64,000 bases of DNA. It comes from a candidate division TM6 bacterium GW2011_GWF2_28_16. Lineage in GTDB: Bacteria; Babelota; Babeliae; Babelales; UASB340. This document shows, piece by piece, positions 5,497 to 60,697 of this stretch. The position numbers and the translations under genes are program-made. The stretch spans positions 358,012-422,011 of the forward strand of contig LBNX01000002.1 of the NCBI GenBank assembly GCA_000989185.1. Reading direction: 5' to 3'. The notes beneath the pieces were generated by a model. That model worked only from the letters and a program-made list of their open reading frames with translations. It was not told where the DNA came from and did no database searches. Positions within the stretch are counted from its first letter, which is position 1. Every line of letters starts with the position of its first letter.

Positions 5497-5559
5497 GTAT
5501 AACTTTCAAAAATTGTTAATGGGTTTTATTGTAATATAAATTATATTTTATGTGTAGCT

Positions 5560-6774
5560 TTAATAAATTTTAAACCTTTTACATAAATCTTGAACTTCTA
5601 CTTTAAGTTTTTGTGCAAAATTTGTATCAAGTTTATTTTTAATTGCTTCGTCAATAAGGTGCACAACCTGTAAAACTTCTTTTTCTTTAAATCCTCTAGT
5701 TGTAACTGCAGGGGTACCAATTCTTATGCCACTTGTAACGGTTGGGGGTGTTGGGTCAAAGGGTATAGAATTACTATTTAATATAATTCCAGATTGCTCT
5801 AAAAGTTTTTCGACTTCTTTGCCAGAAATATTTTTATTACGTAAATCTATTAAAAATAAATGATTATCTGTATCACCTGAAACTATTTTATATCCCAGAT
5901 TTTTAAATTCTTGGCACATAGTTTTAGAATTTTTAACAACTTGTTCTTGATAACTTTTAAATTCTGGTGTTAAAGCATTATCAAATGCCACTGCTTTGGC
6001 TGCAATAACATGCATTAAAGGGCCACCTTGTGAGCCTGGCATAACAGCTTTGTCTAGTTTTTGAGCATGATCTAATTTGCTCATAATTATTCCACCACGT
6101 GGGCCGCGCAAAGTTTTATGTGTAGTGCTACTTACAAAATCGGCATATGGCATTGGGCTTGGGTGAATGTCTGCTGCTATTAAACCTGCAATATGGGCAA
6201 TGTCTATAAATAATAGTGCATGATTTTTTTGTGCTATATCATAAAGCCTTTTAAAATCTATAGTTCTTGAATATGCACTTGCGCCAGCGACTATCATTTT
6301 GGGTTGATGTTGGTTAGCCAAAATTTCTATTTCGTCGTAATCAAGTTGTTCAGTTTCGGGGCTAACGTGATAGGGTATAAAATTAAAAATTTTGCCAGAA
6401 AAGTTAACTTTGTGACCATGGGTTAAATGGCCGCCGCAACTTAGGTCCATGCCTAAAATAGTATCTCCTGGTTTTAGAACACTTAAGTAAACGGCAAAGT
6501 TAGCGCTTGAGCCAGAATGTGGCTGAACATTTATATGTTCACAACTAAATAACTTTTTACCCTGAGTTATGGCATAATTTTCGACTTTATCTACTATTTC
6601 GCATCCGCCATAATATCTTTTACCAGGATAGCCTTCGGCATATTTATTGGTTAAAACAGAACCTGTGGCATCCAAAACATTTTGGGGGGCATAATTTTCT
6701 GAAGCTATTAAGTTTATTGTTAATTCTTGGCGCAAAAATTCTTCTTTTATTAATTTAGAGATAAAATCTGACAT
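5560..6774 (-). CDS. glyA: Serine hydroxymethyltransferase
   Basis: GGHLTHGH and the PLP-lysine context SSTTHKTLRGPRGG. Full-length SHMT-like sequence. Confidence 0.95.
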   Translation of the reverse strand: MSDFISKLIKEEFLRQELTINLIASENYAPQNVLDATGSVLTNKYAEGYPGKRYYGGCEIVDKVENYAITQGKKLFSCEHINVQPHSGSSANFAVYLSVLKPGDTILGMDLSCGGHLTHGHKVNFSGKIFNFIPYHVSPETEQLDYDEIEILANQHQPKMIVAGASAYSRTIDFKRLYDIAQKNHALLFIDIAHIAGLIAADIHPSPMPYADFVSSTTHKTLRGPRGGIIMSKLDHAQKLDKAVMPGSQGGPLMHVIAAKAVAFDNALTPEFKSYQEQVVKNSKTMCQEFKNLGYKIVSGDTDNHLFLIDLRNKNISGKEVEKLLEQSGIILNSNSIPFDPTPPTVTSGIRIGTPAVTTRGFKEKEVLQVVHLIDEAIKNKLDTNFAQKLKVEVQDLCKRFKIY

Positions 6775-9720: not shown

Positions 9721-11730
9721 TTAATTAACACTTAATCTTTGATACGCATAAGTTAAAATATCAGGATCAAAACCTTCGTTTTTGATTAGGTCTAATGCAA
9801 TCTTTGAATAAGATATACCTTCTTTAAAATCATATGGGTAATAAAATGAGCCATCTGATTTTTTTATTGCAGAAACCATGTAGTTTATAATTTCATGGTT
9901 AGTATCATTTTCTAAATTTGTTAAATCTTTAAAATGTGTGGACAGTAGGTATAGAGTGTTATCAAAATCGGCTAGTTTTCTTGCTATGCCATAAGCTGCT
10001 GCAGAACCTTCTTCAGGATTTGTGCCAGTAAAAATTTCGTCCATAATAAAGAATGCAAATTGTTGTTCTTTTAAATTTAATATTGACTGTAAAAGTTTTA
10101 AGGCTCTATCCATTTCAGCTTGAAAAAGAGATTTATCTCCTGTTGCGTCTGTTATATTTAAATATGTATTTAAAATAGTAAATGGTGTAAAAGCCATAAC
10201 ATTTGCAGGAGCAATTCCAATTGTTTGAGCCATGAGTGTAGAAGCAGTAATGGCTTTTAATATTGTTGATTTACCTGCTGCATTTGGTCCTGTAACTAAA
10301 ATTTTACTGTTTGATATTCCCAATTCTAAATTATTGGTTACAACTGTTTTGGGATTTAGGATAGGGTGCCAGAAGTTTTCTATTTTTAGAAATGGTTTTA
10401 ATGCATTTTCTCTATAAGTCACAAAGCAATATCTTGCATTTTCATTACTAATATGTTCTTTAAATAGTTTTGTGATAGATATATAGCTATCTATTTTTGC
10501 GATCAATTTATAATTTTTTAAAAAGTTCGCTTTTAAATTTTTGATTAATTCAAAAGAAGCAAAAATATTTCCTTTATGAGATATCAATGATGGAGAGTCT
10601 GCTTTAAATGTATTTTTATTTAAAATGTTTAGCAGTTTTTTATTTTGATTATTTTTTTCCAAATTTAACTTTATATTTGTTGCTTCTGGCAATAATAAAA
10701 GAAGTTTTGTATCGTTAATAATTAAATTGTTAATGTTTTTTATAGCTTGAATATATCTGCTTGTATTGATCATTCTTTGTTGAATATTATTAGAAGCATC
10801 GAGAATGCTTTTTATTATTGTGTTGTACATTTCTCTAGACAAAAACAAGCCAAATCCAAATCCCAATGCAGCTGCTGGAAGTTGAATTGCCGGCTTATCT
10901 ATCTTGAATGCGGCTGCAAGACTAGAGTTTCCATAATAATTTTCTCCAAAGTTATTCGTAGCACTTATAAAAAACCCTGGACAAAGTAGTGGTGCTGTTA
11001 ATGCCATTATTGAACCAGTAATTAATTGAAATGATAGTGCAGTTCCTAGTGCAGTTGGGCTTGTATTTAATTGATTAAACCCTGGCAATTTAAAATATAT
11101 TAAATTTTTTAGAAAATTTTCAAACATTTTATCAAATGGTTTCCAGAATGATAAAAAATCGTTTTCATATAATTTTATTATTTTTAGATTTTGATTAATA
11201 TTTTCAAATAATGTTTCGTTATTTAATAATGTATGTATTATATCTTGTCTCTTTTTTAAAAGCGTAATATTTGTTGTTGGATTAAAAAGAATTTTTGCTA
11301 ATTTAATACGTCCAAATTTTGTTTCTGTTTTATCTATAAAATGGAAAATACTATTGTCTTTTGTTGTTTCTGAGCTATTAAATAGGCATAAATCTTTTGC
11401 GAGCGTTTCGTTTGATATATTATTGCTTAGTGATTTACTATATTTCTGTTGTAGTTCGAAAATTAATTTATAACATTCGTAATCTGTTAATTTTGGAATT
11501 TCGATTTTATTTTTATTTTTTTTATCTTCTTCTATTATGATTTTATCAGAATTATTTTCAGGTTTGATTATTGATGGCATGAAAAGTTTTTCAATTGAAT
11601 GATATATGTTTTTTGTTTGAGTGTTTGATTGTGTATCATTGTTATTTAATGTAGATGTATCTGGAAATAAAAGAAAACTTTGAATCGTAAATGTGAATAA
11701 AAAGAGTATTGATAGTTTTTTATTTAACAT
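9721..11730 (-). CDS. MutS-family protein (core domain III plus ATPase domain V) with an N-terminal signal sequence and internal TM segments; no mismatch-binding domain
   Basis: Domain III-like FIDKTETKFGRIKLAKILFNPTTNITLLKKRQDII. Walker A GPNAAGKST, SLFQAEM, Walker B FIMDEIFTGTNPEEG, STHF. Hydrophobic N-terminus MLNKKLSILFLFTFTIQSFLLF and central hydrophobic stretches. Confidence 0.8.
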   Translation of the reverse strand: MLNKKLSILFLFTFTIQSFLLFPDTSTLNNNDTQSNTQTKNIYHSIEKLFMPSIIKPENNSDKIIIEEDKKNKNKIEIPKLTDYECYKLIFELQQKYSKSLSNNISNETLAKDLCLFNSSETTKDNSIFHFIDKTETKFGRIKLAKILFNPTTNITLLKKRQDIIHTLLNNETLFENINQNLKIIKLYENDFLSFWKPFDKMFENFLKNLIYFKLPGFNQLNTSPTALGTALSFQLITGSIMALTAPLLCPGFFISATNNFGENYYGNSSLAAAFKIDKPAIQLPAAALGFGFGLFLSREMYNTIIKSILDASNNIQQRMINTSRYIQAIKNINNLIINDTKLLLLLPEATNIKLNLEKNNQNKKLLNILNKNTFKADSPSLISHKGNIFASFELIKNLKANFLKNYKLIAKIDSYISITKLFKEHISNENARYCFVTYRENALKPFLKIENFWHPILNPKTVVTNNLELGISNSKILVTGPNAAGKSTILKAITASTLMAQTIGIAPANVMAFTPFTILNTYLNITDATGDKSLFQAEMDRALKLLQSILNLKEQQFAFFIMDEIFTGTNPEEGSAAAYGIARKLADFDNTLYLLSTHFKDLTNLENDTNHEIINYMVSAIKKSDGSFYYPYDFKEGISYSKIALDLIKNEGFDPDILTYAYQRLSVN

Positions 11731-11832
11731 AAAAAATGCCCCCTGTTATTTGGACTTAATTACATATTAGTTATTTATAGAGGGTAAAAGGCTAGCAAAA
11801 GCTAGTCTTCGCGTCAAACGATAAAATTGAAT

Positions 11833-11865
11833 TTAGCCCTGAATTATGGGAATAATCAGGGCTAA
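11833..11865 (-). terminator. Putative terminator downstream of ndk
   Basis: TTAGCCCTGA...TCAGGGCTAA 10-bp inverted repeat 12 nt past the ndk stop; the U-run is weak. Confidence 0.5.
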
Positions 11866-11876
11866 GATTAAAGAAT

Positions 11877-12284
11877 TTATGCTAATTCTGGAAAAAAGAA
11901 TTTTATCTCTTCTTTAGCAGTCTCTGGTGCATCAGAGCCATGAGTTGCATTTTCGCCTTTACTTGTTCCATAAAGTTTGCGTAAGCTATTCTCTGTTGCC
12001 TTTGTAGAATCTGTATCACCCATTAAATCGCGCCATGCTTTAATAGCATTGTCTTTTTGCAACGCCATTACTATAACGGGGCCAGAGATCATAAATTTTA
12101 CTAATTCATTATAAAAAGGTCTTTCTTTATGCACAGCATAAAATTGTTCTGCTTGGTTTTGTGTAAGCTGTAATTTTTTCATGCCCAAAATATTAAAGCC
12201 TTCTTTTTCGATTCTATCTATAATTTTGCCAGCATTTTTTGCTTTTACAGCATCTGGTTTTATAATTGCGAATGTTTTTTCCAT
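11877..12284 (-). CDS. ndk: Nucleoside diphosphate kinase
   Basis: TFAIIKPDAV start and the active-site His context NATHGSD. Confidence 0.95.
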   Translation of the reverse strand: MEKTFAIIKPDAVKAKNAGKIIDRIEKEGFNILGMKKLQLTQNQAEQFYAVHKERPFYNELVKFMISGPVIVMALQKDNAIKAWRDLMGDTDSTKATENSLRKLYGTSKGENATHGSDAPETAKEEIKFFFPELA

Positions 12285-12311
12285 GATTACCCTATAAAAA
12301 TTAAATAAATT

Positions 12312-12344
12312 AAAAAAAAGAGCCCGCCGGTTTAATGGCGGGCT
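12312..12344 (-). terminator. Rho-independent terminator downstream of rpsA
   Basis: On the minus strand: AGCCCGCC-loop-GGCGGGCT followed by T8. Confidence 0.8.
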
Positions 12345-12368
12345 AATTATAATTACCCAATAAAAATT

Positions 12369-14195
12369 TTACTCTTTATTGCTTTTATTCATGTGAGCTT
12401 CTAAAGCTTGCTGTAAAGAAGATTTTGGTTTTCTTGCATCTTCTTGTTGTGTGTTTTCTTCAGGTTCTCTAGCTGTTACTCTGCGAGGTTTAGAAGTGCC
12501 TGCAGCAGATGAGCCAGCGCCAGCTTCTTTTTTGCCTTTAGATTCTTTAGGTTTACTAGAAGTTCTTAAGCTTAAACCAAGCTTTTTGTCTTCTTCGTTA
12601 ACTTTAACAACTTTGAATTTTCTGGTTTCGCCAACTTGTAATACATCTTCTACTTTTTCTACATCTGTATCAGAAAGTTCAGATATATGTATTAAGCCTT
12701 CAATTCCAGATTCAAGTTTTACAAAAGCGCCAAAGTTTGTAATTTTGGAAACTTTACCTTCAACTTCGCTTCCTACTGGATGCTTAGTTTCGATATTTTC
12801 CCATGGATCGCCTGCAAGTTGTTTTACGCCAAGAGAAACTTTTTTATTATCGCTATCAACGTTTAATACTAAAGCTTCAACTTCGTCACCTTTTTTATAT
12901 TTATCACTAGGGTGATTTATATTGCTTGCCCAAGAAATATCAGAAATATGTACAAGGCCATCAACACCTTCTAGTAATTGAACAAATATACCAAAGTCTG
13001 TAATGTTTGTGATTTTACCCTTAATTTTATCGCCAGCTTTAAATTTAGCAGCAACTTCTTTCCAAGGGTCTTGGCTCATTTGTTTAATACTTAATGACAT
13101 TCTTCTGTTGTCTTTATCAAGAGCTACAACTTTAACTTCTATTGTATCGCCTGCAGCATAGTGCTTAGCTAAGTTTGTAATTCTTTCTGTCCAAGAAATT
13201 TCAGAAATATGTACAAGGCCTTCTACGCCTTTTTCTATTTCTACAAACAAGCCGTAATCTGTAATGCTGGAGATTTTACCTTTAATAATAGATCCAACAG
13301 GATATTTTTTATCAATTTCTGCCCATGGATTATCAGAAAGCTGTTTAATGCCAAGGGATATTTTTTCAAATTGTTTATCAAAAGAAAGAACTTTTACGTT
13401 GATTTCATCACCAATTTTTAATAATTCGCTTGGGTGTGTAATTCTGCCCCAAGACATATCTGTGATGTGTAAAAGACCGTCAATACCACCAATGTCAACA
13501 AACACACCATAGTTGGTGATGTTTTTGACTATACCACGAATCACTTGGCCTTCGCTGACATTTTCTAATGCTTTTTGTTTATCAACGCTTCTTTGTTCTT
13601 CTATAAATTTACGACGGGAAATTATTACATTACCGCGTTTTTTATTAACTTTTAAAATTTTACCGGTAACTTCTTGTCCAACAAATTGATCAAAATTATT
13701 AATTCTTTGAGTATCAACTTGAGATCCTGGTAAAAATGCTGGGATACCAATATCAACGCTAAGACCACCCTTAACTTTGTGTGTTACAACACCTGTTACA
13801 GGCATATCTTTTTCTGCAAATTCGGCAATTTTTTCCCAAGCTCTGATTGCTTTTGCTTTTTGGTAAGAGAGAACTATGTTGCCATATTCATCTTCTACGC
13901 GATCTAAAATGACATCAATTTCGTCATTTACATGCAATTTTTTTAGTTCTATTTCAGAAAATTCATAGTTAGGAATAAAACCGTCAGATTTATAATTTAT
14001 ACTGACTGTAACTCCATTATTTTCTTTTATTATAATTTTGCCTTTAATAATTTTTTCAGCATCAAACCCTTGTAAGGTTTGAGTAAAAATAGCGGCAAGA
14101 TCATTTTTATCTTGTTCGCTTATATTAAAAACTTCTTCTAATAATTCTGTGTTAAGAAGAGGCGAAATAGAGAATTTCTCTGGATTATTTTCCAT
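12369..14195 (-). CDS. rpsA: 30S ribosomal protein S1 (six S1 domains) with a basic, low-complexity C-terminal tail
   Basis: Repeated S1 OB-fold motifs (G.V..I..FG.FV....GL.H.S). Start at ATG 14195 (MENNPEKF) is preferred; the track ORF extends to 14219. Confidence 0.95.
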   Translation of the reverse strand: MENNPEKFSISPLLNTELLEEVFNISEQDKNDLAAIFTQTLQGFDAEKIIKGKIIIKENNGVTVSINYKSDGFIPNYEFSEIELKKLHVNDEIDVILDRVEDEYGNIVLSYQKAKAIRAWEKIAEFAEKDMPVTGVVTHKVKGGLSVDIGIPAFLPGSQVDTQRINNFDQFVGQEVTGKILKVNKKRGNVIISRRKFIEEQRSVDKQKALENVSEGQVIRGIVKNITNYGVFVDIGGIDGLLHITDMSWGRITHPSELLKIGDEINVKVLSFDKQFEKISLGIKQLSDNPWAEIDKKYPVGSIIKGKISSITDYGLFVEIEKGVEGLVHISEISWTERITNLAKHYAAGDTIEVKVVALDKDNRRMSLSIKQMSQDPWKEVAAKFKAGDKIKGKITNITDFGIFVQLLEGVDGLVHISDISWASNINHPSDKYKKGDEVEALVLNVDSDNKKVSLGVKQLAGDPWENIETKHPVGSEVEGKVSKITNFGAFVKLESGIEGLIHISELSDTDVEKVEDVLQVGETRKFKVVKVNEEDKKLGLSLRTSSKPKESKGKKEAGAGSSAAGTSKPRRVTAREPEENTQQEDARKPKSSLQQALEAHMNKSNKE

Positions 14196-25320: not shown

Positions 25321-28299
25321 ATGAAGTTTAAATTTTCTTTAAAATATTTTTTATTATCGTCTTGTACTTTATTATTTTTTTATTATTTAAATTCTTCTAT
25401 ATCGACAGAAGTTGTTAATTTTGTTTTAACTCAAGATAAAGAAGCTAAGATAGAAATTCCAAAAGAGTTTGAACATGTTAAGTTTTTGGCCAATCTTGAA
25501 ATTCAAGAAGCAGATAAAACTATTACACGTTATCTTGCAGGATTAGGAACTGCAAGTTTTGCAGCAAATGCTTTTTATGCAGCAAATTATTTTTATTTGG
25601 GTGCAAGTTCTCCAAATCCTGGTACGTCTGCTATTGTTAATATTAGATTAAATGCAGGTACTACTCCAGATTTAAATACTCTTGAATTTGTGCCATTAGC
25701 ACCACAAACTGCATATTTAAATGGTATTAAAGAAAATGATAAATATGTAAAAAAAGATAATCCTGTTTATGACAAACGTATTGATAAATTAACTTTGCAA
25801 AGCAATAAACCAGTTGTAACTTTACTTGATCAAACAAATATAGAAGGCTGGGTTTCTGGAAATCCTGTTTTGGCTGGAGAGTGTGTTTGCTTGATTGATA
25901 ATCAAGCTGATGGTAGTTCTGTTAAAACTAATATTATAAAAATTAATGATTCCAATAATGCTGCAACTAATAGTGTTGTTGGTTTGGCTGCAACTTCAGA
26001 TAAGATTATTGCAGCTGTAAAATCAAATGCTGGTAGCTTTGGTGATGATAATGCAGGTTTTGCTGTTTTGATTCAAGAAGATAGTAAGCTAAAGCCAATT
26101 AATGCTCAAACAGGCGATAATGCAGGTAATCTTGCAGTTAAATTAGCTGTTGGTGCAGATTTACTTTTTGCAATTGATCAAGCTGCGGCTAGTGCTGGAG
26201 TTGATGCTGCTGAACTTGGTGATATGTACTGGGATTCAAGTTTGCAAAGATTATTTATTGGTCTTAAGAATGCTAAAAAAGATAATGGGTTGGTGGCTGG
26301 TGGCATAGTCTCTATTTTAGTTGGGCGTTTTAATGATAATGGTTCTTTAGCTATTGAACCGGCTATTTCATTAACCAGTGCATTATTTACACTTGATTCT
26401 GTTAATCACATTTTGGGCTTTTATAGCAACAATGATCTTCGTGCTGATGTTTACAAATTAAAAACAATGACAACTAGCACAAATAAAAATTATTTAATAG
26501 TTAATTCAAGTGTTGGCTTAGCGCAAGAAAAAAATAAAATTTATGCATTGCCAATTCTTGGCATAAAGTTAAGTGATGGTACAACTGTTACACCCGTTGC
26601 CAATGTTGGTAAAGTTGCAAGCAAAAATAATCATGATGCAGTTGTTGCTGCTAATGCAGATATGACTTTAGCTGGTGATGCAGCAGCTTTAGTTGGTGGT
26701 GGCGCGTTGCCAACTTCACCAGATGATGCAGCTGTAAAAGTTACAGATATTTATGTCGTAAATGATACTGTTTTTGTTTCATTATCTGGTGATAGAACGT
26801 TAGATATCCATGGTAATGTTATGGAATCTGGAATTTTTAAGAGCACTGCAATCTTGAATGCGAATGGCGAAATCCGCGCTTGGTCACCATGGCAACGTGT
26901 GATGGGAAATACGGACAAAGTCTATGGCTTTGGTTTTGATGTAACCGGAGCAAACTATTGGTATTTTACAGGAGCTGATGCAGCGAATGCAAATACAGCA
27001 AAAATTACTCAGTGGGGCAAGGGCGTTGCTCAAGCTGGTACAATGGGTAATGGACTTACAACCATTTTAAAAGATGAGTTTACACAAGCTAATGCTGGTG
27101 TGCATCAGATATTTAATTTTGATGAATATACGCCAAGCATAGCAAGAACTGGTGCAGCAGATAGAATGTCTTTTATGGCGTGCTTGGGATACAAAAAAAT
27201 TGCGTTAGTGCAAACAGGAGCAAATGTTAATGCAGGTGGCATTAATGCTTTTACGCCTACAAATTTATTTGAAGAAGGCGTGAATACTTTTATTTTAAAT
27301 GATCAAGCATTAAACGATCTTGGACCAATTTGTTGTGCAGATGTTTCTCGGGTTAACGCTGTTGCAGATTCTGGTTGGTTATTTGTTGGTGGTTATAACG
27401 GCATTGCAGTGTTACGTAAAGGTGGGGATGTTGTAGGTGTTAGAGGTAAGGGGTGGGATGGTAGAGTTGATCAGGCTGCAGTTAATTTAGCAACGGTTGC
27501 TGGTTGGTCATTTAAAGAAATTGGTAATTTTTCTAATGTAAGAAAGTTACTTGCAGATTCTCCAGATGGCGGATTATGGTTTTATGTTATGACTATGAAT
27601 AATCTTTATAGATTTGAAATGGATAGTGAAAAATTTAAAGATAGTGCTGTTGTTGCCGATTTATTAGCAAGAACGATTACACCTCCTCCTGGATATTTAT
27701 TAGACATGTTAATATTTAGACGCGAAAATCAAGATACAAGATTACTTGTTGCAACAACACAGGGTTTATTTTATTCAAATGCTATTAATGATGCTAATGT
27801 AGATAAAATTGGTGTTAATGCACCAGTTTGGACGCGAGTAAATTTAAACTCTGGCACAGCATTTTCAAAACCTGTAGCACATTTAAGTTTTATAGATGTA
27901 CAAAAGGGTGGTTATACTACTAATGGTAATTTATATGCACTAGCTGCAGACTTAGCATTAAATATGGCTACAGTTTATAGATTTGATGTTAACGCTGGAG
28001 TGATTACAGCAACAAAAGAAAATTCTGGAACAGATTACTTTTATTCTTTTGGTGAATTAAGATCAAATTTTACAACAGATGGTGCTCTTGGCTTTAGTAT
28101 GCTTTCTAAGCATTTTGATAAAGTACAATTTTTGCGTTCAATAAGAATGTCTTATATACAAAGTTATATTAGAAGTACAGAGACTAATTTAAATTTAAAT
28201 GTAGAAAGTAATGCATATAATATTGGTGTAATGACATTAAATACTGCTTCTGGTGGTTGGGTTATTCCTGGCGACTGGGGCATAAGGGTTAGTGAGTAG
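25321..28299 (+). CDS. Large (992 aa) secreted Ala/Gly/Asn/Thr/Val-rich protein; candidate surface-layer or adhesin protein
   Basis: N-terminal signal-like segment. Few Cys or charged runs. Long uninterrupted ORF. Composition resembles beta-rich surface proteins. No catalytic motif recognised. Confidence 0.7.
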   Translation: MKFKFSLKYFLLSSCTLLFFYYLNSSISTEVVNFVLTQDKEAKIEIPKEFEHVKFLANLEIQEADKTITRYLAGLGTASFAANAFYAANYFYLGASSPNPGTSAIVNIRLNAGTTPDLNTLEFVPLAPQTAYLNGIKENDKYVKKDNPVYDKRIDKLTLQSNKPVVTLLDQTNIEGWVSGNPVLAGECVCLIDNQADGSSVKTNIIKINDSNNAATNSVVGLAATSDKIIAAVKSNAGSFGDDNAGFAVLIQEDSKLKPINAQTGDNAGNLAVKLAVGADLLFAIDQAAASAGVDAAELGDMYWDSSLQRLFIGLKNAKKDNGLVAGGIVSILVGRFNDNGSLAIEPAISLTSALFTLDSVNHILGFYSNNDLRADVYKLKTMTTSTNKNYLIVNSSVGLAQEKNKIYALPILGIKLSDGTTVTPVANVGKVASKNNHDAVVAANADMTLAGDAAALVGGGALPTSPDDAAVKVTDIYVVNDTVFVSLSGDRTLDIHGNVMESGIFKSTAILNANGEIRAWSPWQRVMGNTDKVYGFGFDVTGANYWYFTGADAANANTAKITQWGKGVAQAGTMGNGLTTILKDEFTQANAGVHQIFNFDEYTPSIARTGAADRMSFMACLGYKKIALVQTGANVNAGGINAFTPTNLFEEGVNTFILNDQALNDLGPICCADVSRVNAVADSGWLFVGGYNGIAVLRKGGDVVGVRGKGWDGRVDQAAVNLATVAGWSFKEIGNFSNVRKLLADSPDGGLWFYVMTMNNLYRFEMDSEKFKDSAVVADLLARTITPPPGYLLDMLIFRRENQDTRLLVATTQGLFYSNAINDANVDKIGVNAPVWTRVNLNSGTAFSKPVAHLSFIDVQKGGYTTNGNLYALAADLALNMATVYRFDVNAGVITATKENSGTDYFYSFGELRSNFTTDGALGFSMLSKHFDKVQFLRSIRMSYIQSYIRSTETNLNLNVESNAYNIGVMTLNTASGGWVIPGDWGIRVSE

Positions 28300-28307
28300 A
28301 TTTAGGA

Positions 28308-28339
28308 CTAGATCCCGGATCGGGGTCCGGGATGACAAG
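28308..28339 (+). repeat. GC-rich hairpin element, family H (CCGG-arm variant)
   Basis: CTAG-ATCCCGGA-TCGGGG-TCCGGGAT-GACAAG, a perfect 8-bp stem, in the 67-nt gap between the 992-aa gene and the OMP gene. Confidence 0.85.
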
Positions 28340-51157: not shown

Positions 51158-51319
51158 TAAATATTGTTGTTTTTAGTGTTTTTTGACTAATAAAAACAAA
51201 AAGATATATTTTTGTTGCTAAATATTTTCCAATTGTAATATAATATATATGAAAAGTTGAGTTAACTTATTAAAATAGGGATTTAAAATAAGTTTAAAAG
51301 AACAGTTTTGGGGGGAGTT

Positions 51320-52102
51320 ATGAATAAAAGGTTATATCTATTAACAACATTATTGGTTGTTTTTTTTGCAATTTATTCGGATTCTGAAAAAAAGATAGAA
51401 AATAGTTTGCCAGATTCTGAGCTTACTGCCCCTGTGCAGCAGGTTGAGCAGGTAGCTCAGGTTGTTGAGGCAGAAAAAATTGAGGTTCCTGTTGAGTCGG
51501 TAGCTCAGATTATTGAACCTGTTGTTGAGGTTCCAGTTGAGCAGGTAAAGGTCGAAGAAATTGAACCAGTTGTGTTACCTGCTACAGAAGTACCAGAAAA
51601 TATTGTAGAAAAAGTTGAGTCTGTTGCAGTTGAACAACCTGTTGAGCCGGTAGTTCCAGTTGTTGAGCCAGCTATTATTGAGCCTGCAATTGTTGAATCA
51701 ACTATCGACCCAGTTATCGATCAGTCTGTTGGTGATCTTATTGTTCCTGAAGAATCAGTGATGCCGGAACCAGAAGAAGTTGTTGAGCTTGAAGAAGTTC
51801 AGGACGTTGCACAGCCTGATGGTGAAGAAAATTTAGATGAAATGGAAGAAATTGAACAGGAGCAAGATGTTAGTCAAGACCAAGTTCCAGAAGAAAATCC
51901 TGTTGAGCCTGTTGAGTTAGATGAGACTCAAGCAATAATTTCTGAAAAAGCACCCGAAATTGATGTATTAGGTTCTGTAGAAGAAACAAAGCAAGATATC
52001 AGTGATGCTGATATGAATGCTGTTCAAGCAGAAGACGAAGAGCTTTATGATGAACTTGCAGATTTAACTTTTGGTTCTGATATAGATACAGACTTAGAGT
52101 AA
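51320..52102 (+). CDS. N-terminally anchored, extremely acidic protein with degenerate P-V-E repeats
   Basis: ATG 51320 (MNKRLYLLTTLLVVFFAIY) after a GGGGGGAG SD. Degenerate repeats VEQV / EPVVEVPVEQV / VEPVVPVVEP. D/E-rich C-terminus. Confidence 0.6.
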   Translation: MNKRLYLLTTLLVVFFAIYSDSEKKIENSLPDSELTAPVQQVEQVAQVVEAEKIEVPVESVAQIIEPVVEVPVEQVKVEEIEPVVLPATEVPENIVEKVESVAVEQPVEPVVPVVEPAIIEPAIVESTIDPVIDQSVGDLIVPEESVMPEPEEVVELEEVQDVAQPDGEENLDEMEEIEQEQDVSQDQVPEENPVEPVELDETQAIISEKAPEIDVLGSVEETKQDISDADMNAVQAEDEELYDELADLTFGSDIDTDLE

Positions 52103-52127
52103 GTATATAAATAAAAATTACCTTTTG

Positions 52128-52155
52128 GCCCGGTTTAATCCGGGCTTTTTTATTT
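52128..52155 (+). terminator. Rho-independent terminator
   Basis: GCCCGG-TTTAAT-CCGGGC followed by TTTTTTATTTT. Confidence 0.75.
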
Positions 52156-52173
52156 TGTATATTTTTTATTGAC

Positions 52174-52203
52174 CTAGATCCTGAATAGAGTTCAGGATGG
52201 CAA
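52174..52203 (+). repeat. GC-rich hairpin element, family H (TGAA-arm variant)
   Basis: CTAG-ATCCTGAA-TAGAG-TTCAGGAT-GGCAA. Sits 19 nt after the terminator and 44 nt before the NurA-like start. Confidence 0.85.
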
Positions 52204-52246
52204 ATATACATGACTGAATACAAAAATAAATGGGTCAATAATTATT

Positions 52247-53509
52247 ATGTTAGATAAAAATAAATTATATTTACAGATTAAAAAAAATGCGCAAAAACTT
52301 TTTAGTGATTTTACTCAAGAATTTGATTTAGCTAAAAAAAAGTGGCAAGAAATTTCTTGTGATATTAATTTTAAAAATAAAGTTGAATTTTCTCATGCTA
52401 GTTTTTTAACTCCAACTTGGCTTGGTAATTTAAATGATAAATTTAAGATCGATAATAAAATTTTTAATTATTCTATATTATCTGTAGATGGTTCTCAGGT
52501 TTATCCAGATCGTAATATATCTGGAGCAAATTGTTGCTTAATAAATATCGGTTCATGTTTAATTAAATATAATAATACAGGCAGCTCCGTCAAAATAGGC
52601 TCTGAGCCACTTTTATTTTTGTTAGATGATTTATTTGAACATGCTATCCCGAGTAAGGACCCGGGATCTAGTGATCTTGTTGATTTAAAGCGAGAAGAAC
52701 TTGAACTTTTAAACTTGTTAAATATAACTTTAGAACAAAATATAGATATAGCATTTGTAGATGGTACTGTAATATTTTGGTTTTTAGAAAGTAAGCCAGA
52801 AGAAGTAAAAAATTTATTTTTAAATTTATATTTAAATATTTTACAAAAATTTTATGATCAAAAAAAAATAATTGCAGGTTTTATAAGCTTTCCCAAAAGC
52901 AAAGAGCTTATTAATTTAATTAAAATTGGCTTGTGTAAGTACGATTACGCTGACTGTATTGCTTGTTATAAAATTTATAATAATAAAGCGTTTGATAAAG
53001 TGGATTCGACTACGCAGCAAGCTGCTGCGCTCACCACGAACGCCCCGTTCGCCCTGAGCGAAGTCGAAGGGGTTGCCATTTCTAAGAATGCTCAGCCCTG
53101 TATGCTTGTTGATAATTTAATAGATACTAAAATATTAAGAAATTTTTTAAATATAAATGAGCGAACTACAGTTTTTTTTAGTAATTCAAAAATTGTAGAT
53201 AGTTATCCAGATTATCTAAAACCCTGTTTTTTTTATTTAAATGCAGGGGTAGAAATTGTACGTATAGAGACTTTTAAATATATTGCACAAGATGAAAAGT
53301 TAATTAATCTTATTGCAAGCGTAGCTCTTGATCAAATTAATAAGGGGCTTGGTTACCCTGTAACTTTGGCTCAAGCGCACGAAGCTGCAGTTGTAAAAGG
53401 ACCAGATAGAGAGTTTTTTTATAATTTATTACAAAAAGAAGCTCTTGATCAATCACGAAGATTAATTTACTCTCAAAAGAGTATAAAAAAACGTGGCACT
53501 GGGGTATAA
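52247..53509 (+). CDS. NurA-like nuclease domain protein carrying two in-frame repeat insertions
   Basis: YSILSVDGSQVYPDR (NurA Asp motif), IAFVDGTVIFW, C-terminal GYPVTLAQAHEAAVVKGPDREFF. GC-rich inserts at 52643..52671 and about 53003..53075. Confidence 0.6.
   Translation: MLDKNKLYLQIKKNAQKLFSDFTQEFDLAKKKWQEISCDINFKNKVEFSHASFLTPTWLGNLNDKFKIDNKIFNYSILSVDGSQVYPDRNISGANCCLINIGSCLIKYNNTGSSVKIGSEPLLFLLDDLFEHAIPSKDPGSSDLVDLKREELELLNLLNITLEQNIDIAFVDGTVIFWFLESKPEEVKNLFLNLYLNILQKFYDQKKIIAGFISFPKSKELINLIKIGLCKYDYADCIACYKIYNNKAFDKVDSTTQQAAALTTNAPFALSEVEGVAISKNAQPCMLVDNLIDTKILRNFLNINERTTVFFSNSKIVDSYPDYLKPCFFYLNAGVEIVRIETFKYIAQDEKLINLIASVALDQINKGLGYPVTLAQAHEAAVVKGPDREFFYNLLQKEALDQSRRLIYSQKSIKKRGTGV
52643..52671 (-). 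repeat. Family H hairpin (CCGG-arm variant), in frame inside the NurA-like CDS
   Basis: GCT-ATCCCGAG-TAAGGA-CCCGGGAT-CTAG, 7 of 8 stem pairs; encodes AIPSKDPGSS. Confidence 0.8.
53003..53075. repeat. GC-rich palindromic insertion (family G) in frame inside the NurA-like CDS
   Basis: Inverted termini TTCGACTACGC (53005..53015) and GCGAAGTCGAA (53058..53068), 10 of 11 complementary. Internal palindrome CGCAGCA-AGC-TGCTGCG. Encodes DSTTQQAAALTTNAPFALSEVEGVA. Confidence 0.7.
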
Positions 53510-53521
53510 TATTGGGCTTTT

Positions 53522-55474
53522 ATGTTAATAGTAAAAAAATTAAGTTTAAACTTTGGTCAGCAAGTAATTTTTGAAGATATTTCGTTTACTGTAAATTCAA
53601 ACGAACGAATTGGTCTTGTTGGGCGTAATGGTTCTGGAAAAACTACTTTATTAAAAATAATAAGTGATTTTAATCAATCAGGTACAAAAGACTTTGATTC
53701 TGGCCAAATAGAGATATATAAAAATAAAAAAATTGCATACTTGCCACAGCAGGTTATTTTAGAGTCAAAAAAAGATATTTTACACGAAGCGCTAAATAGC
53801 TTTATAACAGATTTGGGTTATTTAGGTGATTTAATTCATGAATATAATGATCTTGAAAATAAAATTAATAGTTTACATAATCACGAAGTAAATAATCTTG
53901 AAAGATATTCGAATTTGCAAATTCTTTTAAACGAGCTTAATTTTGAAAAAAAAGTTTTAGAAACTAAAAAGATTTTATTGGGTTTAGGCTTTAGTGAAAG
54001 TATCTTAAAAGATAGCGTACAAACGCTTTCTGTTGGTTGGAAGATGCGCTTGGTTTTGGCTAAATTGTTATTGCAAAAGGCTGATTTTTATTTATTTGAC
54101 GAACCAACAAACCATTTAGATTTAGTAGCAAAAGATTGGTTTTTAGCATTTTTGCAAAATGCTAACTTTGGTTTTATGTTAGTTTGTCATGATAGATATT
54201 TTTTAGATAAATTATGTTCACAAATTTATGAATTATCTTTAGGCCAATTAAATATTTATACAGGTAATTATTCTAAATATTTGGAACAAAAAGAACATGA
54301 TAAACAACTTTTAGAACAAAAATATATAGAACAACAAAAATATATTAAAAAAGAGATGGCTGTAATAGATCGCTTTAGGGCAAGTGCATCAAGATCTAAT
54401 ATGGCGCAGAGTAAATTAAAAGCATTAGAAAAATTAGAACTTGTAAAAATAGAACCAATGCAAAAAATTGTTAAAATAAAATTTAATAATGTAAAACAGG
54501 CTGGCAAAATAGTTTTGACTGTTAAAAATTTAGCAAAATCTTTTGGTGATAAATTAATTTTTAAAAATGTAAATTTTGAAATTGATCGAGGCGAAAAGGT
54601 TGCAATAGTTGCGCCAAATGGTCAAGGTAAGTCGACTTTATTAAATATGATTATGGAGAATATTCTGTGTGAAGACCCGGGATCTAAAATTATTTTTGGA
54701 CATAATGTTTTTCCGGCATTTTTTGAACAGGATCAAAATAAAACTTTAAATCCAAAAAAAACTATATATCAAGAAGTAGAAGATAGCTGTAAAACAACAG
54801 AACAAAGACAAAAAATTAGGACTATTTTGGGCTCGTTTTTGTTTTCTGGTGATGATATCGAAAAAACTATATCTGTTTTAAGTGGTGGTGAAAAAAATAG
54901 AGTTGCAATGGTAAAGGTTCTTTTGCAAGATGCGAATTTTTTAATATTGGATGAACCTACAAATCATCTTGATATAGAATCAAAAGAAGTACTATTGTCT
55001 GTTCTAAAAGATTATCCTGGGACTATATTATTTGTTTCTCATGATCGTGATTTTTTGAATAATTTATCAACAGCTATAATAGAATTAAAACAAGATTCTA
55101 GCTATAAATATAAAGGTAATTATGATGCATTTTTGGAACAAAAAGATGCACAGCAAAATGTAATCGAAAATGTTAAAAATATAGAATTAAGAGCTAATCA
55201 TATTGAGCATGCATTGTCATCCCGGGCAAGGACCCGGGATCCAGAAATAAAACATTCAAATAATTTCTCCAAAAATGATTATGAAACTCGTAAACAAATA
55301 AGAGCATTAGAAAGTAAGATAGAAAAACAAGAAAAAGAACTTGAACTTTTAACTAAAAAGTTTGAAAATTTAGAATATGGATCTAAAGATTATAATAAAG
55401 TTTTAAATGAAATTAATAAAATAGAAAAAGAGCTAAATGAAAATTTAGCTCTTTGGGAAATTTTAAATAGTTAA
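53522..55474 (+). CDS. ABC-F family ATPase (Uup/YheS-like, C-terminal coiled coil)
   Basis: Two ABC cassettes (GRNGSGKTT / LSVGWKMR / YLFDEPTNHLD; APNGQGKST / LSGGEKNR / LILDEPTNHLD), no TM domain, coiled-coil tail. Contains a family H copy and a half-copy in frame. Confidence 0.9.
   Translation: MLIVKKLSLNFGQQVIFEDISFTVNSNERIGLVGRNGSGKTTLLKIISDFNQSGTKDFDSGQIEIYKNKKIAYLPQQVILESKKDILHEALNSFITDLGYLGDLIHEYNDLENKINSLHNHEVNNLERYSNLQILLNELNFEKKVLETKKILLGLGFSESILKDSVQTLSVGWKMRLVLAKLLLQKADFYLFDEPTNHLDLVAKDWFLAFLQNANFGFMLVCHDRYFLDKLCSQIYELSLGQLNIYTGNYSKYLEQKEHDKQLLEQKYIEQQKYIKKEMAVIDRFRASASRSNMAQSKLKALEKLELVKIEPMQKIVKIKFNNVKQAGKIVLTVKNLAKSFGDKLIFKNVNFEIDRGEKVAIVAPNGQGKSTLLNMIMENILCEDPGSKIIFGHNVFPAFFEQDQNKTLNPKKTIYQEVEDSCKTTEQRQKIRTILGSFLFSGDDIEKTISVLSGGEKNRVAMVKVLLQDANFLILDEPTNHLDIESKEVLLSVLKDYPGTILFVSHDRDFLNNLSTAIIELKQDSSYKYKGNYDAFLEQKDAQQNVIENVKNIELRANHIEHALSSRARTRDPEIKHSNNFSKNDYETRKQIRALESKIEKQEKELELLTKKFENLEYGSKDYNKVLNEINKIEKELNENLALWEILNS
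54672..54686 (-). repeat. Family H half-copy (one arm plus flank) inside the ABC-F CDS
   Basis: AAGACCCGGGATCTA is identical to the 3' half of copy 56623..56652; encodes EDPGS just after the second Walker A. Confidence 0.6.
55214..55244 (-). repeat. Family H hairpin (CCGG-arm variant), in frame inside the ABC-F CDS
   Basis: TTGTC-ATCCCGGG-CAAGGA-CCCGGGAT-CCAG, a perfect stem; encodes LSSRARTRDPE in the linker before the coiled coil. Confidence 0.85.
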
Positions 55475-56601
55475 ACGTTAAAGCGTATTAAAATTATATC
55501 GCCATCTTTTATTATATAATCTTTGCCTTCAGTTCGCATTTTACCTGTATCACGTAATTTTGCTTCACTTCCTGCTAACATTATATCGCTATAATTATAA
55601 ACAACAGCACATATAAAACCACGTTCTAAATCAGAATGAATTTCTCCAGCAGCCTGAGGTGCTTTGGTGTTTTGTCGCAAACTCCAGGCATGCGCTTCTT
55701 TGGGGCCACATGTAAAAAATGTAATTAAGCCTAGGTTTTGGTATGTGCTTTTAATAATTTTATCTAAACCTGATTCATCTATTTCAAGAGACGCTAGCAT
55801 TTCTTGTTTTTCACTATCTTCAAGTTGAGATAATTCAGCTTCTATTTTTGCAGATATTGCTATTACTTTATTAGCACCAAATTTTGCTACTAAATTTTTA
55901 TAGTGAATATTATTTAAATAGTTTTTATTTTGTAAATCATCTTCAGAAATATTTGCTATTATTATAAAGTTTTTGGCACTTAAAAGATCTATCGTTTTTA
56001 TATTTTTATTAGCATATTCACGAATTATATCTTGTACACCATAAAAATTACCAGAGTTAATAAAATTTTTAACTTTTAAAACAAGCTCTAGTTCTTGCTC
56101 TAATTCTTTAATTTGATTTGGTGTAAAATTTTTGTTTTTGGCACTTTTTAAAAGTGCATTTAATTTTTCTTCTTTTTTTTCTATAGATTCCAAATCTTTT
56201 AACATAAGCTCAGAAACTATAACTTCAAAGTCATCTATTGGGTCAAGATGATCATGAACATGAGTTACGTTTTTATCTTCAAAGCAACGTAATACGTGTA
56301 TTATTAAATCAACACCCATTATATTAGACAAAAATTGGTTACCTAAGCCTTCGCCTGTTGCTGCACCTTTTACAAGCCCTGCAATATCACAAAATTGCAC
56401 AGTTGTTGGTATTAATTTTTGTGAACCAAATATTTTTGCTAACTCTTCTAAGCGCTTATCTGGAACATTTGTAATAGCCATATGAGGGTCTATTGTACAA
56501 AATGGGTAGTTTTCTGCAGGTATTCCTGCTTTTGTTAATGCATTAAAAAGTGTAGATTTTCCAACATTTGGAAGGCCTACTAAACCTGCTTGAATTGCCA
56601 T
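55471..56601 (-). CDS. ychF: Ribosome-binding ATPase YchF
   Basis: GLVGLPNVGKSTLFNALT, DIAGLVKGA, and a C-terminal TGS-like domain (DGDIILIRFNV). Confidence 0.95.
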   Translation of the reverse strand: MAIQAGLVGLPNVGKSTLFNALTKAGIPAENYPFCTIDPHMAITNVPDKRLEELAKIFGSQKLIPTTVQFCDIAGLVKGAATGEGLGNQFLSNIMGVDLIIHVLRCFEDKNVTHVHDHLDPIDDFEVIVSELMLKDLESIEKKEEKLNALLKSAKNKNFTPNQIKELEQELELVLKVKNFINSGNFYGVQDIIREYANKNIKTIDLLSAKNFIIIANISEDDLQNKNYLNNIHYKNLVAKFGANKVIAISAKIEAELSQLEDSEKQEMLASLEIDESGLDKIIKSTYQNLGLITFFTCGPKEAHAWSLRQNTKAPQAAGEIHSDLERGFICAVVYNYSDIMLAGSEAKLRDTGKMRTEGKDYIIKDGDIILIRFNV

Positions 56602-56622
56602 TTTTCACCTATTATTTTATGG

Positions 56623-56652
56623 GGTCATCCCGGGCAAAGACCCGGGATCTAA
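56623..56652 (-). repeat. Family H hairpin (CCGG-arm variant) in the ychF 5' leader / divergent promoter region
   Basis: GGTC-ATCCCGGG-CAAAGA-CCCGGGAT-CTAA, a perfect stem, 22 nt upstream of the ychF start codon. Confidence 0.85.
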
Positions 56653-56799
56653 ATACTAGTATAAAAAAATTGATTTTTTTTGCAAAAAGCGTAGTTTAAA
56701 AGCCATTTATTTATTACCATTTGTGAATTTTTATCCAGATGGGATAATTTAAGTGTAAATACATAATTTTGTGTATTTTTAATAAAAAATGAGGTTATT

Positions 56800-57519
56800 A
56801 TGAAAAAAATGAATATTTTTACAAAAATTATGTTAATTTTTGCTATTTTAGTTAATATTTTGTCTTTTGATTTAAATGCATCTATAAGACGTAGACTTAA
56901 TGCAAGAAGAGAACAATCTGTTGTTAATGGACCTATGGATAGGTTTGTAATTCGAAGAGTTAGAGTTGTTGAGCAACAAGTTCAAGAACAACAAGTGCTT
57001 GAAATTAATTTTGATTTATTCAGAGAACAACTTGTTGCAACAAATTTAAATCAAGAGATTGTAAATTTAATTATTGAAAGAATTCGAGATTATAATTCTG
57101 AAAATTTAAATGAGATTCTAGATTTATCTGGATTATTTATTACAGATGCAAGATTGCAGATTATAATACCATTTTTGGCACAAAGAAATGTTAGAAAACT
57201 AAATCTTGCTGGTAATCAAATAAGATTAATACCACAAAATATTAGAGAATTAGTAAATTTAAATTATTTAAATTTAAATAATAATAATATTGTTTATTTT
57301 AACGCAAGTTTTAGAGATTTTATACAGGGCGAAAATTCTTTAGAAGTTTTATCAAAAATGCAAAATTTAAGAATAATATTATTACAAAATAATAATTTAG
57401 ATTATATACCATATAGATTTTTAGGTATGAGAAATTTAGAAGTATTAAATGCAAGTGATAATCGATTAAATATTGGTACTCAAAGATTTAGAAATGATAA
57501 TAGGTTTATTTTAGATTAA
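56800..57519 (+). CDS. Secreted leucine-rich-repeat protein (eukaryote-like LRR)
   Basis: Signal peptide, then SIRRRLNARREQS. LRR units LNLAGNQIRLIPQNIRELVNLNYLNLNNNNI and LQNNNLDYIPYRFLGMRNLEVLNASDNRL. Confidence 0.75.
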   Translation: MKKMNIFTKIMLIFAILVNILSFDLNASIRRRLNARREQSVVNGPMDRFVIRRVRVVEQQVQEQQVLEINFDLFREQLVATNLNQEIVNLIIERIRDYNSENLNEILDLSGLFITDARLQIIIPFLAQRNVRKLNLAGNQIRLIPQNIRELVNLNYLNLNNNNIVYFNASFRDFIQGENSLEVLSKMQNLRIILLQNNNLDYIPYRFLGMRNLEVLNASDNRLNIGTQRFRNDNRFILD

Positions 57520-58888: not shown

Positions 58889-58918
58889 TTTTTTATTACT
58901 GGATCCTGAATCAAGTTC
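58889..58918 (+). repeat. GC-rich hairpin element, family H (TGAA-arm variant)
   Basis: CTGG-ATCCTGAA-TCAAG-TTCAGGAT-GACAA, 31 nt upstream of miaB. Its left flank TTTTTTATTAC resembles that of copy 52174. Confidence 0.85.
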
Positions 58919-58949
58919 AGGATGACAATGTTAGAGAAATATTTTAATT

Positions 58950-60273: not shown

Positions 60274-60347
60274 GGCGGCATAGCCAAGTGGTAAGGCAGT
60301 GGTCTGCAAAACCGCGATCCCCGGTTCAATTCCGGGTGCCGCCTCCA
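60274..60347 (+). tRNA. tRNA-Cys (GCA), CCA encoded
   Basis: Folded by hand. Acceptor GGCGGCA/TGCCGCC. Anticodon stem GTGGT/ACCGC with loop CTGCAAA. T arm CCCGG-TTCAATT-CCGGG. Confidence 0.9.
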
Positions 60348-60357
60348 GCCTACGCTC

Positions 60358-60502
60358 AGCAAGGCGATAGCCTTGCTCTACCATAATGATGCCTACATAA
60401 ACGTAGGCTCTAATGATATGAAATAAAAAAATATTTATAATTTAAATTTAAGCCCGCCTTTAGGCGCGGCGATGTTGTGGTAGAGGAGGGCTATCGCCCT
60501 CC
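60358..60502 (-). mobile_element. MITE-like GC-rich composite palindromic element, family M, copy B (~145 bp), inverted relative to copy A
   Basis: Termini AGCAAGGCGATAGCCTTGCTCTACC and GGTAGAGGAGGGCTATCGCCCTCC. Internal hairpins GCCTACATAAACGTAGGC and GCCCGCCTTTAGGCGCGGC. Its reverse complement is collinear with 29660..29800, with compensatory stem changes. Confidence 0.8.
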
Positions 60503-60573
60503 GGCAGTATAATTTTTTTAAAAAAAAGTTGATTATATTTATAAATTGTACATAATTATAACAATTAATGCGT

Positions 60574-60661
60574 GCCGTGGTGGCGGAATTGGTAGACGCA
60601 AGGGACTTAAAATCCCTCGGGTTTTTAACCTGTGCCGGTTCGACTCCGGCCCTCGGCACCA
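60574..60661 (+). tRNA. tRNA-Leu (UAA), long variable arm, CCA encoded
   Basis: GCCGTGG-TG-GCGGAATTGGTAGACGC D region typical of tRNA-Leu. Anticodon loop CTTAAAA. T arm GCCGG-TTCGACT-CCGGC. One U-U mismatch in the acceptor stem (5:68). Confidence 0.85.
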
Positions 60662-60697
60662 GCCGTCGCTCCTTTGGAGCTATGGCTGGCAAGCCAG
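60661..60697 (+). other. Two GC-rich hairpins abutting the tRNA-Leu 3' end (processing/termination structure or a degenerate repeat terminus)
   Basis: AGCCGTCGCTCC-TTT-GGAGCTATGGCT (12-bp stem with 1 mismatch and 1 G.U), then CTGGC-AA-GCCAG. No U-run follows. Confidence 0.4.

Follow-up and report, generated by a model that had tools for sequence, protein, structure and literature searches.

Palindromic hairpins of probable CGTC type read in frame within NurA and ABC-F genes of a TM6 (Dependentiae) bacterium

The occurrence of short GC-rich hairpins inside intact protein-coding genes of an AT-rich bacterium raises the question of what these sequences are and how the genes came to contain them. 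The locus considered here belongs to candidate division TM6 bacterium GW2011_GWF2_28_16 (Dependentiae; about 28% GC), and the window, meaning the whole stretch of DNA that was analyzed, comprises 64,000 nucleotides (nt) of the forward strand of contig LBNX01000002.1 (GenBank GCA_000989185.1, positions 358,012-422,011). GC content is about 22-37% throughout the window; about 90% of it is covered by open reading frames (ORFs) of at least 100 amino acids (aa) and about 10% is non-coding. Three copies of a hairpin, designated family H, lie within two adjacent genes without breaking their ORFs. One copy is found in a gene for a NurA-domain nuclease (52247-53509, plus strand; 420 aa; Pfam NurA, E = 2.3e-23), which also carries an unrelated 36-aa insert, and two are found in a gene for an ABC-F ATPase (53522-55474, plus strand; 650 aa; two Pfam ABC_tran domains, ABC_tran_Xtn and a weak C-terminal domain). 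The original prediction for this locus held that the encoded peptides are by-products of a DNA element resembling the Rickettsia palindromic elements (RPEs), an interpretation that is correct in essence and partly supported overall.

Family H is most likely a CGTC-tagged repetitive extragenic palindrome (REP), that is, a GC-rich, non-coding palindromic repeat of 27-31 nt, and the probability of this assignment is put at roughly 85%. The CGTC REPs were described by Di Nocera, De Gregorio & Rocco (2013, BMC Genomics 14:522; PMC3733652) and are defined by a CGTC tag (often TGTC or CCTC), a stem of 8-9 bp starting with AT, a loop of 4-5 nt and an unpaired 3-nt tail with the consensus CCA; they have no dedicated transposase (PMC3733652). 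The H consensus with its flanks is TTGTC-ATCCCGGG-N6-CCCGGGAT-C(C/T)A, and five copies in the window conform to it. It combines a C/TGTC tag and a CCA-type tail with an 8-bp stem that opens with AT and encloses a short loop. More specifically, the tag reads TGTC at 55215-55218 and, on the minus strand, at 28334-28337 and 58924-58927, and GGTC at 56623-56626. The first stem pairs are A-T and T-A in all three stem variants (ATCCCGGG/CCCGGGAT, ATCCCGGA/TCCGGGAT and ATCCTGAA/TTCAGGAT), and the tails at 55241-55243 and of the 58903 copy are CCA, those of the other window copies CTA. Published CGTC families are dispersed and found mainly between genes, and the family here is also dispersed, with seven CGTC-type hairpins in the 64-kb window to which all copy counts refer (five H copies and two siblings), four of them intergenic and three intragenic. 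The Rickettsia analogy is borne out in that H shares the tag, stem and tail architecture of the CGTC REPs, the class of RPE-4 and RPE-6: R. conorii RPE-6 corresponds to CGTC-1 and RPE-4 to CGTC-4, and Neisseria dRS3 is likewise CGTC-1 (PMC3733652). Family H represents a stem variant and a new host lineage of a known class of element, and the phenomenon itself has already been described.

The abundance of these hairpins in the window far exceeds expectation. The 11-mer GACCCGGGATC occurs five times with at most one mismatch (0.02 expected), and the hairpin ATCCCGGG-N6-CCCGGGAT occurs five times with at most three mismatches (0.00 expected). A hairpin scan recovered four well-formed H copies, at 28312 (reverse), 52646, 55219 and 56627. 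As DNA, intact H copies have folding energies of -7.7 to -8.6 kcal/mol (z of -2.6 to -3.6), and the range for intact copies including the siblings, -6.4 to -8.6 kcal/mol, is well under that of shuffled controls. An Rfam scan of the whole window at gathering thresholds returned two tRNAs only, and a permissive scan of 52000-57000 left both H and a 75-nt insert in NurA unmatched.

Four of the seven copies fall within the roughly 10% of the window outside ORFs of at least 100 aa. The copy at 56623-56651 (plus strand; arms 56627-56634 and 56641-56648) is perfect, folds at -8.6 kcal/mol, is covered by no ORF of at least 100 aa and sits between two divergent genes, ychF (55471-56601, minus strand) and one for a leucine-rich repeat (LRR) protein (56800-57519). 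A variant at 28309-28338 (minus strand), TTGTC-ATCCCGGA-CCCCGA-TCCGGGAT-CTA, carries a compensatory stem change, folds at -7.7 kcal/mol and is placed between a stop codon at 28299 and a start codon at 28367. The adjacent sequence 28258-28299, which encodes the C-terminal VIPGDWGI of a 992-aa protein, was considered as a decayed copy and dropped, its arms not being complementary when inspected by eye. The two siblings (52178 and 58903) have a stem, ATCCTGAA/TTCAGGAT, that is AT-shifted yet fully complementary. The first, TTGCC-ATCCTGAA-CTCTA-TTCAGGAT-CTA (52175-52203, minus strand; -6.4 kcal/mol, z = -4.3), is intergenic and directly upstream of NurA; the second, TTGTC-ATCCTGAA-CTTGA-TTCAGGAT-CCA (58900-58928, minus strand; -6.4 kcal/mol), is also intergenic, with no covering ORF.

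The intragenic copies were found in frame at the positions, and with the peptides, originally predicted. Copy 1 (52643-52672, plus strand) reads GCT ATC CCG AGT AAG GAC CCG GGA TCT AGT, encoding AIPSKDPGSS at NurA residues 133-142; its arms (52646-52653 and 52660-52667) contain one stem mismatch and it folds at -5.4 kcal/mol as DNA. Copy 2 (54659-54685, plus strand) encodes NILCEDPGS and matches the hairpin pattern with three mismatches. Its left arm has decayed, with ATTCTGTG replacing ATCCCGGG, its folding is lost (-0.3 kcal/mol) and its recognizable part is the right half, 54672-54686. Positions 54671-54685 (GAA GAC CCG GGA TCT) encode EDPGS, which does follow the second Walker A motif as claimed, starting 11 residues after its GKS. 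Copy 3 (55214-55244, plus strand) encodes LSSRARTRDP and is a perfect hairpin with a TTGTC tag and a CCA tail (-8.6 kcal/mol, z = -3.2); with the following codon, 55214-55246 reads TTG TCA TCC CGG GCA AGG ACC CGG GAT CCA GAA, or LSSRARTRDPE, at ABC-F residues 565-575. As had been proposed, copies 1 and 2 are both read as GAC CCG GGA TCT and copy 3 is read in another frame (ACC CGG GAT).

The peptides are best understood as by-products of a DNA element and not as protein motifs, because two frames are used, because copies also occur between genes (28312 and 56627), because H is absent from more distant orthologues and because the inserts use GC-rich codons that this genome seldom employs (GAC for 9% of Asp, CCG for 10% of Pro, CGG for 3% of Arg and TCC for 2% of Ser). 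The H consensus can be read through in five of its six frames; the sixth, a reverse frame, is closed by a TGA read from the tag. Intragenic CGTC units in frame have been documented, many of them in replication and repair genes, and the peptides in the supplementary table of that study include VIPAKAGI, SFPRKRES, CHSRESGNP and RHPGLDPGS, the last for CGTC-1 (PMC3733652). The H peptides VIPGxxPGS and SSRARTRDP (SSRAxTRDP) are same-frame analogues of VIPAKAGI, SFPRKRES and RHPGLDPGS. Like the CGTC REPs, which are found notably in DNA repair genes, single in-frame units of H encode 8-10 residues, and NurA is one such gene. A full-text literature search for repeat-derived peptides (VIPAKAGIQ, SFPRKRES, PELVEG, LRQAQGER and others) returned nothing relevant.

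The distribution of the hairpin reaches far beyond this bacterium. An exact search for TCATCCCGGG-N6-CCCGGGATC, with one genome per species, found H in at least 120 DNA stretches from more than 10 phyla, where about 4 would be expected by chance on an estimate that assumes uniform base composition. The matches listed come from Proteobacteria, Actinobacteria, Bacteroidota, Fibrobacter, Chloroflexi, Firmicutes, Patescibacteria, Coxiellaceae, Babeliales and others. Among these listed matches are 128 exact H hairpins outside the window, in which the bases left free by the search pattern give a tag of CGTC in 62 and TGTC in 57 and a tail of CCA in 80; an inverted partner lies within 60 nt in 22 of the 128. 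This spread of the identical hairpin over many phyla means that family H is not restricted to the TM6 lineage. The 2013 survey reported CGTC repeats from five phyla, mostly from alpha-Proteobacteria (PMC3733652), and in the full text of the searchable literature no description of palindromic elements in Dependentiae was found. Contamination by cloning-vector polylinkers, which contain SmaI and BamHI sites, was rejected as a source, in that the loops and flanks vary while the CGTC tag and CCA tail are conserved. Among viral contigs the exact hairpin occurs in just five stretches, giving no sign of a phage vector. Two further features were observed in this set: 13 of the 128 listed hairpins have a direct half copy, TCATCC[CT]GG, within 40 nt upstream, and at some pan-bacterial loci (L066, L018, L025, L046, L015 and others) the hairpins recur at a regular spacing of 108-198 nt.

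Other known palindromic systems fit less well. The long RPE type (RPE-1; Ogata et al. 2000), as outlined in the summary given in PMC10969869, is about 100-150 bp long and encodes a conserved peptide of 30-50 aa. H resembles RPE-1, so far as that summary describes it, in being selfish palindromic DNA read in frame in unrelated genes (housekeeping genes of a host-associated bacterium, for the RPE), where it is tolerated at sites compatible with the fold. On the same description, its length of 27-31 nt and its peptides of 8-10 aa set it apart. The GTAG REPs and REPINs are likewise short, GC-rich, multi-copy palindromes with a conserved terminal tetranucleotide and occasional intragenic units, but H bears its T/CGTC tag on the strand with the CCA tail and has no GTAG at either end. 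GTAG REPs flank a dedicated gene for a REP-associated tyrosine transposase (RAYT), none of which is known for the CGTC REPs (PMC3733652). Family H is therefore neither of the long RPE-1 type nor part of a GTAG REP/RAYT system. The GC clusters of yeast mitochondria, which belong to an organelle genome and are unrelated in sequence, provide a functional analogy only. They too are short, GC-rich and palindromic, have spread through a genome of very high AT content, and can occur in frame within a coding gene (var1).

The history of the intragenic copies can be read from orthologous sites in related genomes. The closest relative found, Logan contig ERR15087771 (L001), is an independent assembly from another sample and encodes a NurA 79% identical by BLASTP; it stops at residue 483 of ABC-F, short of the copy 3 site. 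Two further relatives, L002 and L124 (P0123), are 62-69% identical. In L001 the same NurA codons are occupied, in the same frame, by GTCATCCCGGGCATAGCCCCGGGATCT (3575-3601), which encodes VIPGIAPGS and has a perfect stem, and the same ABC-F codons, again in the same frame, by GTCATCCCGGGCGAAGCCCCTGGATCT (5483-5509), which encodes VIPGEAPGS. Both of these orthologues keep the TGTC tag. No H is present at the NurA and ABC-F positions in L002, L124 or any other orthologue examined, and a screen of 240 NurA and ABC-F homologues for H-type peptides at other positions found them only in the window and L001 proteins. Copies 1 and 2, being present at the same codons in L001 and absent in L002, predate the split of the window genome from L001 and postdate the split from L002. 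The description of 54672-54686 as a half-copy must be revised accordingly: the orthologous copy in L001 is intact, and the sequence is the right half of a full copy, 54659-54685, whose left arm has mutated. Copy 3, which is still a perfect consensus hairpin, appears to be younger than copies 1 and 2. The sibling hairpin upstream of NurA has no ATCCTGAA/TTCAGGAT-type counterpart anywhere in L001, and the two spacers have diverged too far for their alignment to show an indel or the ends of the element. As a separate observation, L002 has an intergenic CGTC hairpin of its own with another stem (5699-5719; GTTGTC-ATCCCGCA-CTTGA-TGCGGGAT-CTAG), so that the superfamily is present, and diverse in its stems, across this TM6 clade.

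Sequence comparison indicates that the host genes have remained functional. Relative to L001, NurA shows nonsynonymous and synonymous divergences (dN and dS) of 0.078 and 0.68 (dN/dS 0.12), and ABC-F of 0.045 and 0.44 (dN/dS 0.10). Ratios of about 0.1 indicate that purifying selection has acted on both genes ever since they separated from their L001 counterparts, and that they are not pseudogenes. The NurA ORF keeps every invariant column of the NurA alignment (A1), and the Walker and signature motifs are conserved in the ABC-F alignment (A2).

Predicted structures agree with the expectation that inserts would be tolerated in loops. AlphaFold models built from 20-sequence alignments gave a mean predicted local distance difference test (pLDDT) score of 82 for NurA and 84 for ABC-F. 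In the NurA model, copy 1 falls in a loop between helices 126-133 and 142-164, with a pLDDT of about 54. In the ABC-F model, copy 2 is placed in the loop leading from the Walker A helix (370-379) to strand 389-392, and copy 3 at the end of helix 534-569, adjoining a segment predicted to be disordered (570-584). According to these models, all three inserts occupy low-confidence, permissive loops or linkers. The permissiveness of the NurA loop is confirmed by unrelated inserts of 9-63 aa at the same place in other Dependentiae.

These observations are consistent with a simple course of events. Ancestors of this TM6 lineage would have acquired copies of H at the DNA level, most of them in spacers (four of seven in the window), with an occasional copy landing inside a gene. 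An intragenic copy would survive if it kept the frame, introduced no stop codon and occupied a permissive surface loop or linker; it would then be translated as part of the protein, evolve almost neutrally and lose its hairpin under AT-biased mutation. The copies presumably arrived by a transposition-like or recombination-like process, and the insert-bearing proteins are probably made; junction-spanning peptides encoded at the inserts include LFEHAIPSKDPGSSDLVDLK and ANHIEHALSSR.

Several features weigh against the assignment to the CGTC REPs and against simple insertion of such elements. The loops of the H copies are 6 nt long (CAAGGA, CAAAGA, TAAGGA and CCCCGA) versus 4-5 nt in the published definition; those of the two siblings are 5 nt, and CGTC families with other loop lengths are mentioned (PMC3733652). 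All seven window copies are single, whereas head-to-head dimers predominate in published families (PMC3733652), although this arrangement is a tendency of CGTC REPs and lies outside their definition. Two further differences from the published CGTC REPs are the host, a 28% GC member of the Dependentiae/TM6, and net gains below the length of the element. These gains, of +2, +2 and +8 codons, fall short of an element of 9-10 codons. Copies 1 and 2 each add a net two codons (+6 nt), and orthologues free of H have an unrelated loop two residues shorter; at the DNA level, nine element codons in L001 stand opposite seven native codons, for example CAA AAT AAT AAG ATA AAT TTT in L002. Copy 3 adds eight codons relative to L124 (P0123) and P0122 and about 15 relative to L002 and more distant orthologues, in a linker of variable length. 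The clean indels of about ten codons that had been anticipated are thus not seen in NurA or at the copy 2 site of ABC-F, and only the linker copy, at +8, is insertion-like. Sites 1 and 2, where seven native codons were lost or overwritten, are not explained by simple insertion, and insertion with a compensating deletion and overwriting of the target are indistinguishable there.

A further in-frame case lies outside the window, in an O-antigen-ligase/tetratricopeptide repeat (TPR) gene. Here two CGTC hairpins, with stems ATCCCGGG and ATGCTGAA, form a tail-to-tail dimer (L039:4748-4830) that encodes 22 aa for a net gain of 16 aa. The homologues of this gene are from Microgenomates/Gottesmanbacteria of the candidate phyla radiation (CPR), though the metagenome-assembled genome (MAG) is labelled Gammaproteobacteria.

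The small net gains suggest an alternative in which the native loop was not interrupted by a transposed element but overwritten by a templated patch, through gene conversion or template-switching from another H copy primed by microhomology. Sites 1 and 2 both exchange seven native codons for nine element codons with the same net gain of 6 nt, and the GGA TCT at the element's right end falls on native (G/T)xT TCT, which codes for GS or FS. The L039 dimer also gains only 16 aa for its 22, and the native loops of its orthologues start with SxR, like the element-encoded SSR. The same mechanism might extend to CGTC-type hairpins in general, which would be copied over about 20 nt of target and not inserted in the manner of a transposon. 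Such a process would fit the lack of a known transposase (PMC3733652), the identical 8-bp stem in more than 10 phyla, the four intragenic gains that all fall below the element length, and the resemblance of native junction residues to the element ends. The evidence comprises four cases only, all in variable-length loops, and insertion with a compensating deletion explains them equally well. Patch replacement at these sites is therefore considered unlikely, and its extension to the whole class is a speculation to which similarly low odds are given. If it were correct, the genes of Dependentiae and CPR bacteria would preserve traces of a general process, so far undescribed, by which protein loops are rewritten by small palindromes.

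The fate of the shared copies bears on a second alternative, that intragenic hairpins are functional cis-elements under selection, which might stabilize mRNA, pause translation or bind proteins in the way proposed for extragenic REPs. The stems of copy 3 and of the L001 NurA copy are perfect, as are all four intergenic copies, two of them with the compensatory variants ATCCCGGA/TCCGGGAT and ATCCTGAA/TTCAGGAT, a pattern that would fit selection on structure outside genes. Within genes, however, stem pairing is being lost from the copies shared with L001, in one lineage or in both: they have one and three mismatches in the window and one in L001. The shared segments differ between the two genomes at 9 of 30 and 12 of 30 nt, about the synonymous rate (the proportion of synonymous differences, pS, is 0.33-0.45), whereas gene-wide divergence is 10-15%; orthologues free of H, moreover, manage without them. 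Because insert divergence is close to synonymous and the stems are eroding, the genes conserve neither the peptide nor the hairpin, and the inserts drift at a nearly neutral rate. A selected role for the intragenic hairpins is thus considered improbable.

Two remaining explanations can be set aside. The sequence comes from a MAG, and many unrelated phyla have the identical hairpin, as might be expected had foreign GC-rich reads been chimerically joined into AT-rich genes during assembly or binning, but such an artefact is extremely improbable given that the independent L001 assembly has diverged copies at the same codons, that the reading frames are intact and that the NurA product (100% identical to SZ59_C0002G0373 of TM6 bacterium GW2011_GWF2_28_16) is recorded on three contigs from several sources. 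The idea that the segments are conserved protein motifs with a coincidental DNA likeness, such as an xDSGS turn after Walker A, draws on the SGS or DSGS found at the aligned position of ABC-F orthologues, which resembles DPGS, and is effectively refuted by the complete hairpin at the ABC-F site in L001, together with the 11-nt exact DNA identity between unrelated genes and spacers, the rare codons and the different frame of copy 3.

The best-known cases of selfish palindromes within protein-coding genes are from Rickettsia; the assignment of family H to the CGTC REPs adds the Dependentiae (TM6) and a CPR bacterium, and reveals one CGTC hairpin (the ATCCCGGG stem) common to very distant phyla. 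The inserts may be used as shared-derived markers relating TM6 genomes and constitute a natural record of loops that tolerate rewriting. GC-rich islands in AT-rich genes also call for caution in annotation and in checks of MAGs for contamination.

NurA contains a second GC-rich insert in frame that belongs to a different repeat family (52988-53095, core 53006-53080, plus strand). Its 36 aa, AFDKVDSTTQQAAALTTNAPFALSEVEGVAISKNAQ (…APFALSEVEG…), are missing from the other 19 sequences of A1, where they leave a clean gap, and from 119 other homologues. The insert adopts a three-stem Y fold, occurs once in the window and has no Rfam match, and its protein segment is predicted to be disordered (residues 247-280 have pLDDT values under 50). 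In other Dependentiae, the NurA homologues P0014, P0032, P0036, P0041, P0042, P0062, P0065, P0067, P0080 and P0090 have in-frame inserts of their own, lineage-specific and 9-63 aa long. The peptides that these inserts encode (TLRQAQGER, AFDKLRTGG, VRPELVEG, STGSGRTG and LSKVE) are characteristic of widespread GC-rich repeats, and the inserts cluster at five hot-spot loops that include the H-bearing loop. In-frame insertion of repeats seems to be common in Dependentiae.

The order of the surrounding genes is kept in relatives, with genes for a PQ-loop protein, an acidic protein, NurA and ABC-F followed by YchF on the opposite strand. The acidic protein upstream of NurA (51308-52102) is 264 aa long, rich in V, E and P, and has a signal-peptide-like N-terminus; its gene is followed by a clean intrinsic terminator, GCCCGG-TTTAAT-CCGGGC-T6 (52131-52153). 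Between NurA and ABC-F, L002 has genes for a Fic-domain protein and an amino-acid permease (11338-13296), where the window (53509-53522) and L001 have only 12 nt. Elsewhere in the window, the two tRNA genes identified by Rfam (60274-60344 and 60574-60658) are each directly followed by GC-rich sequence, and GC-rich hairpins occur at 60447-60513 within an otherwise AT-rich spacer (60345-60692).

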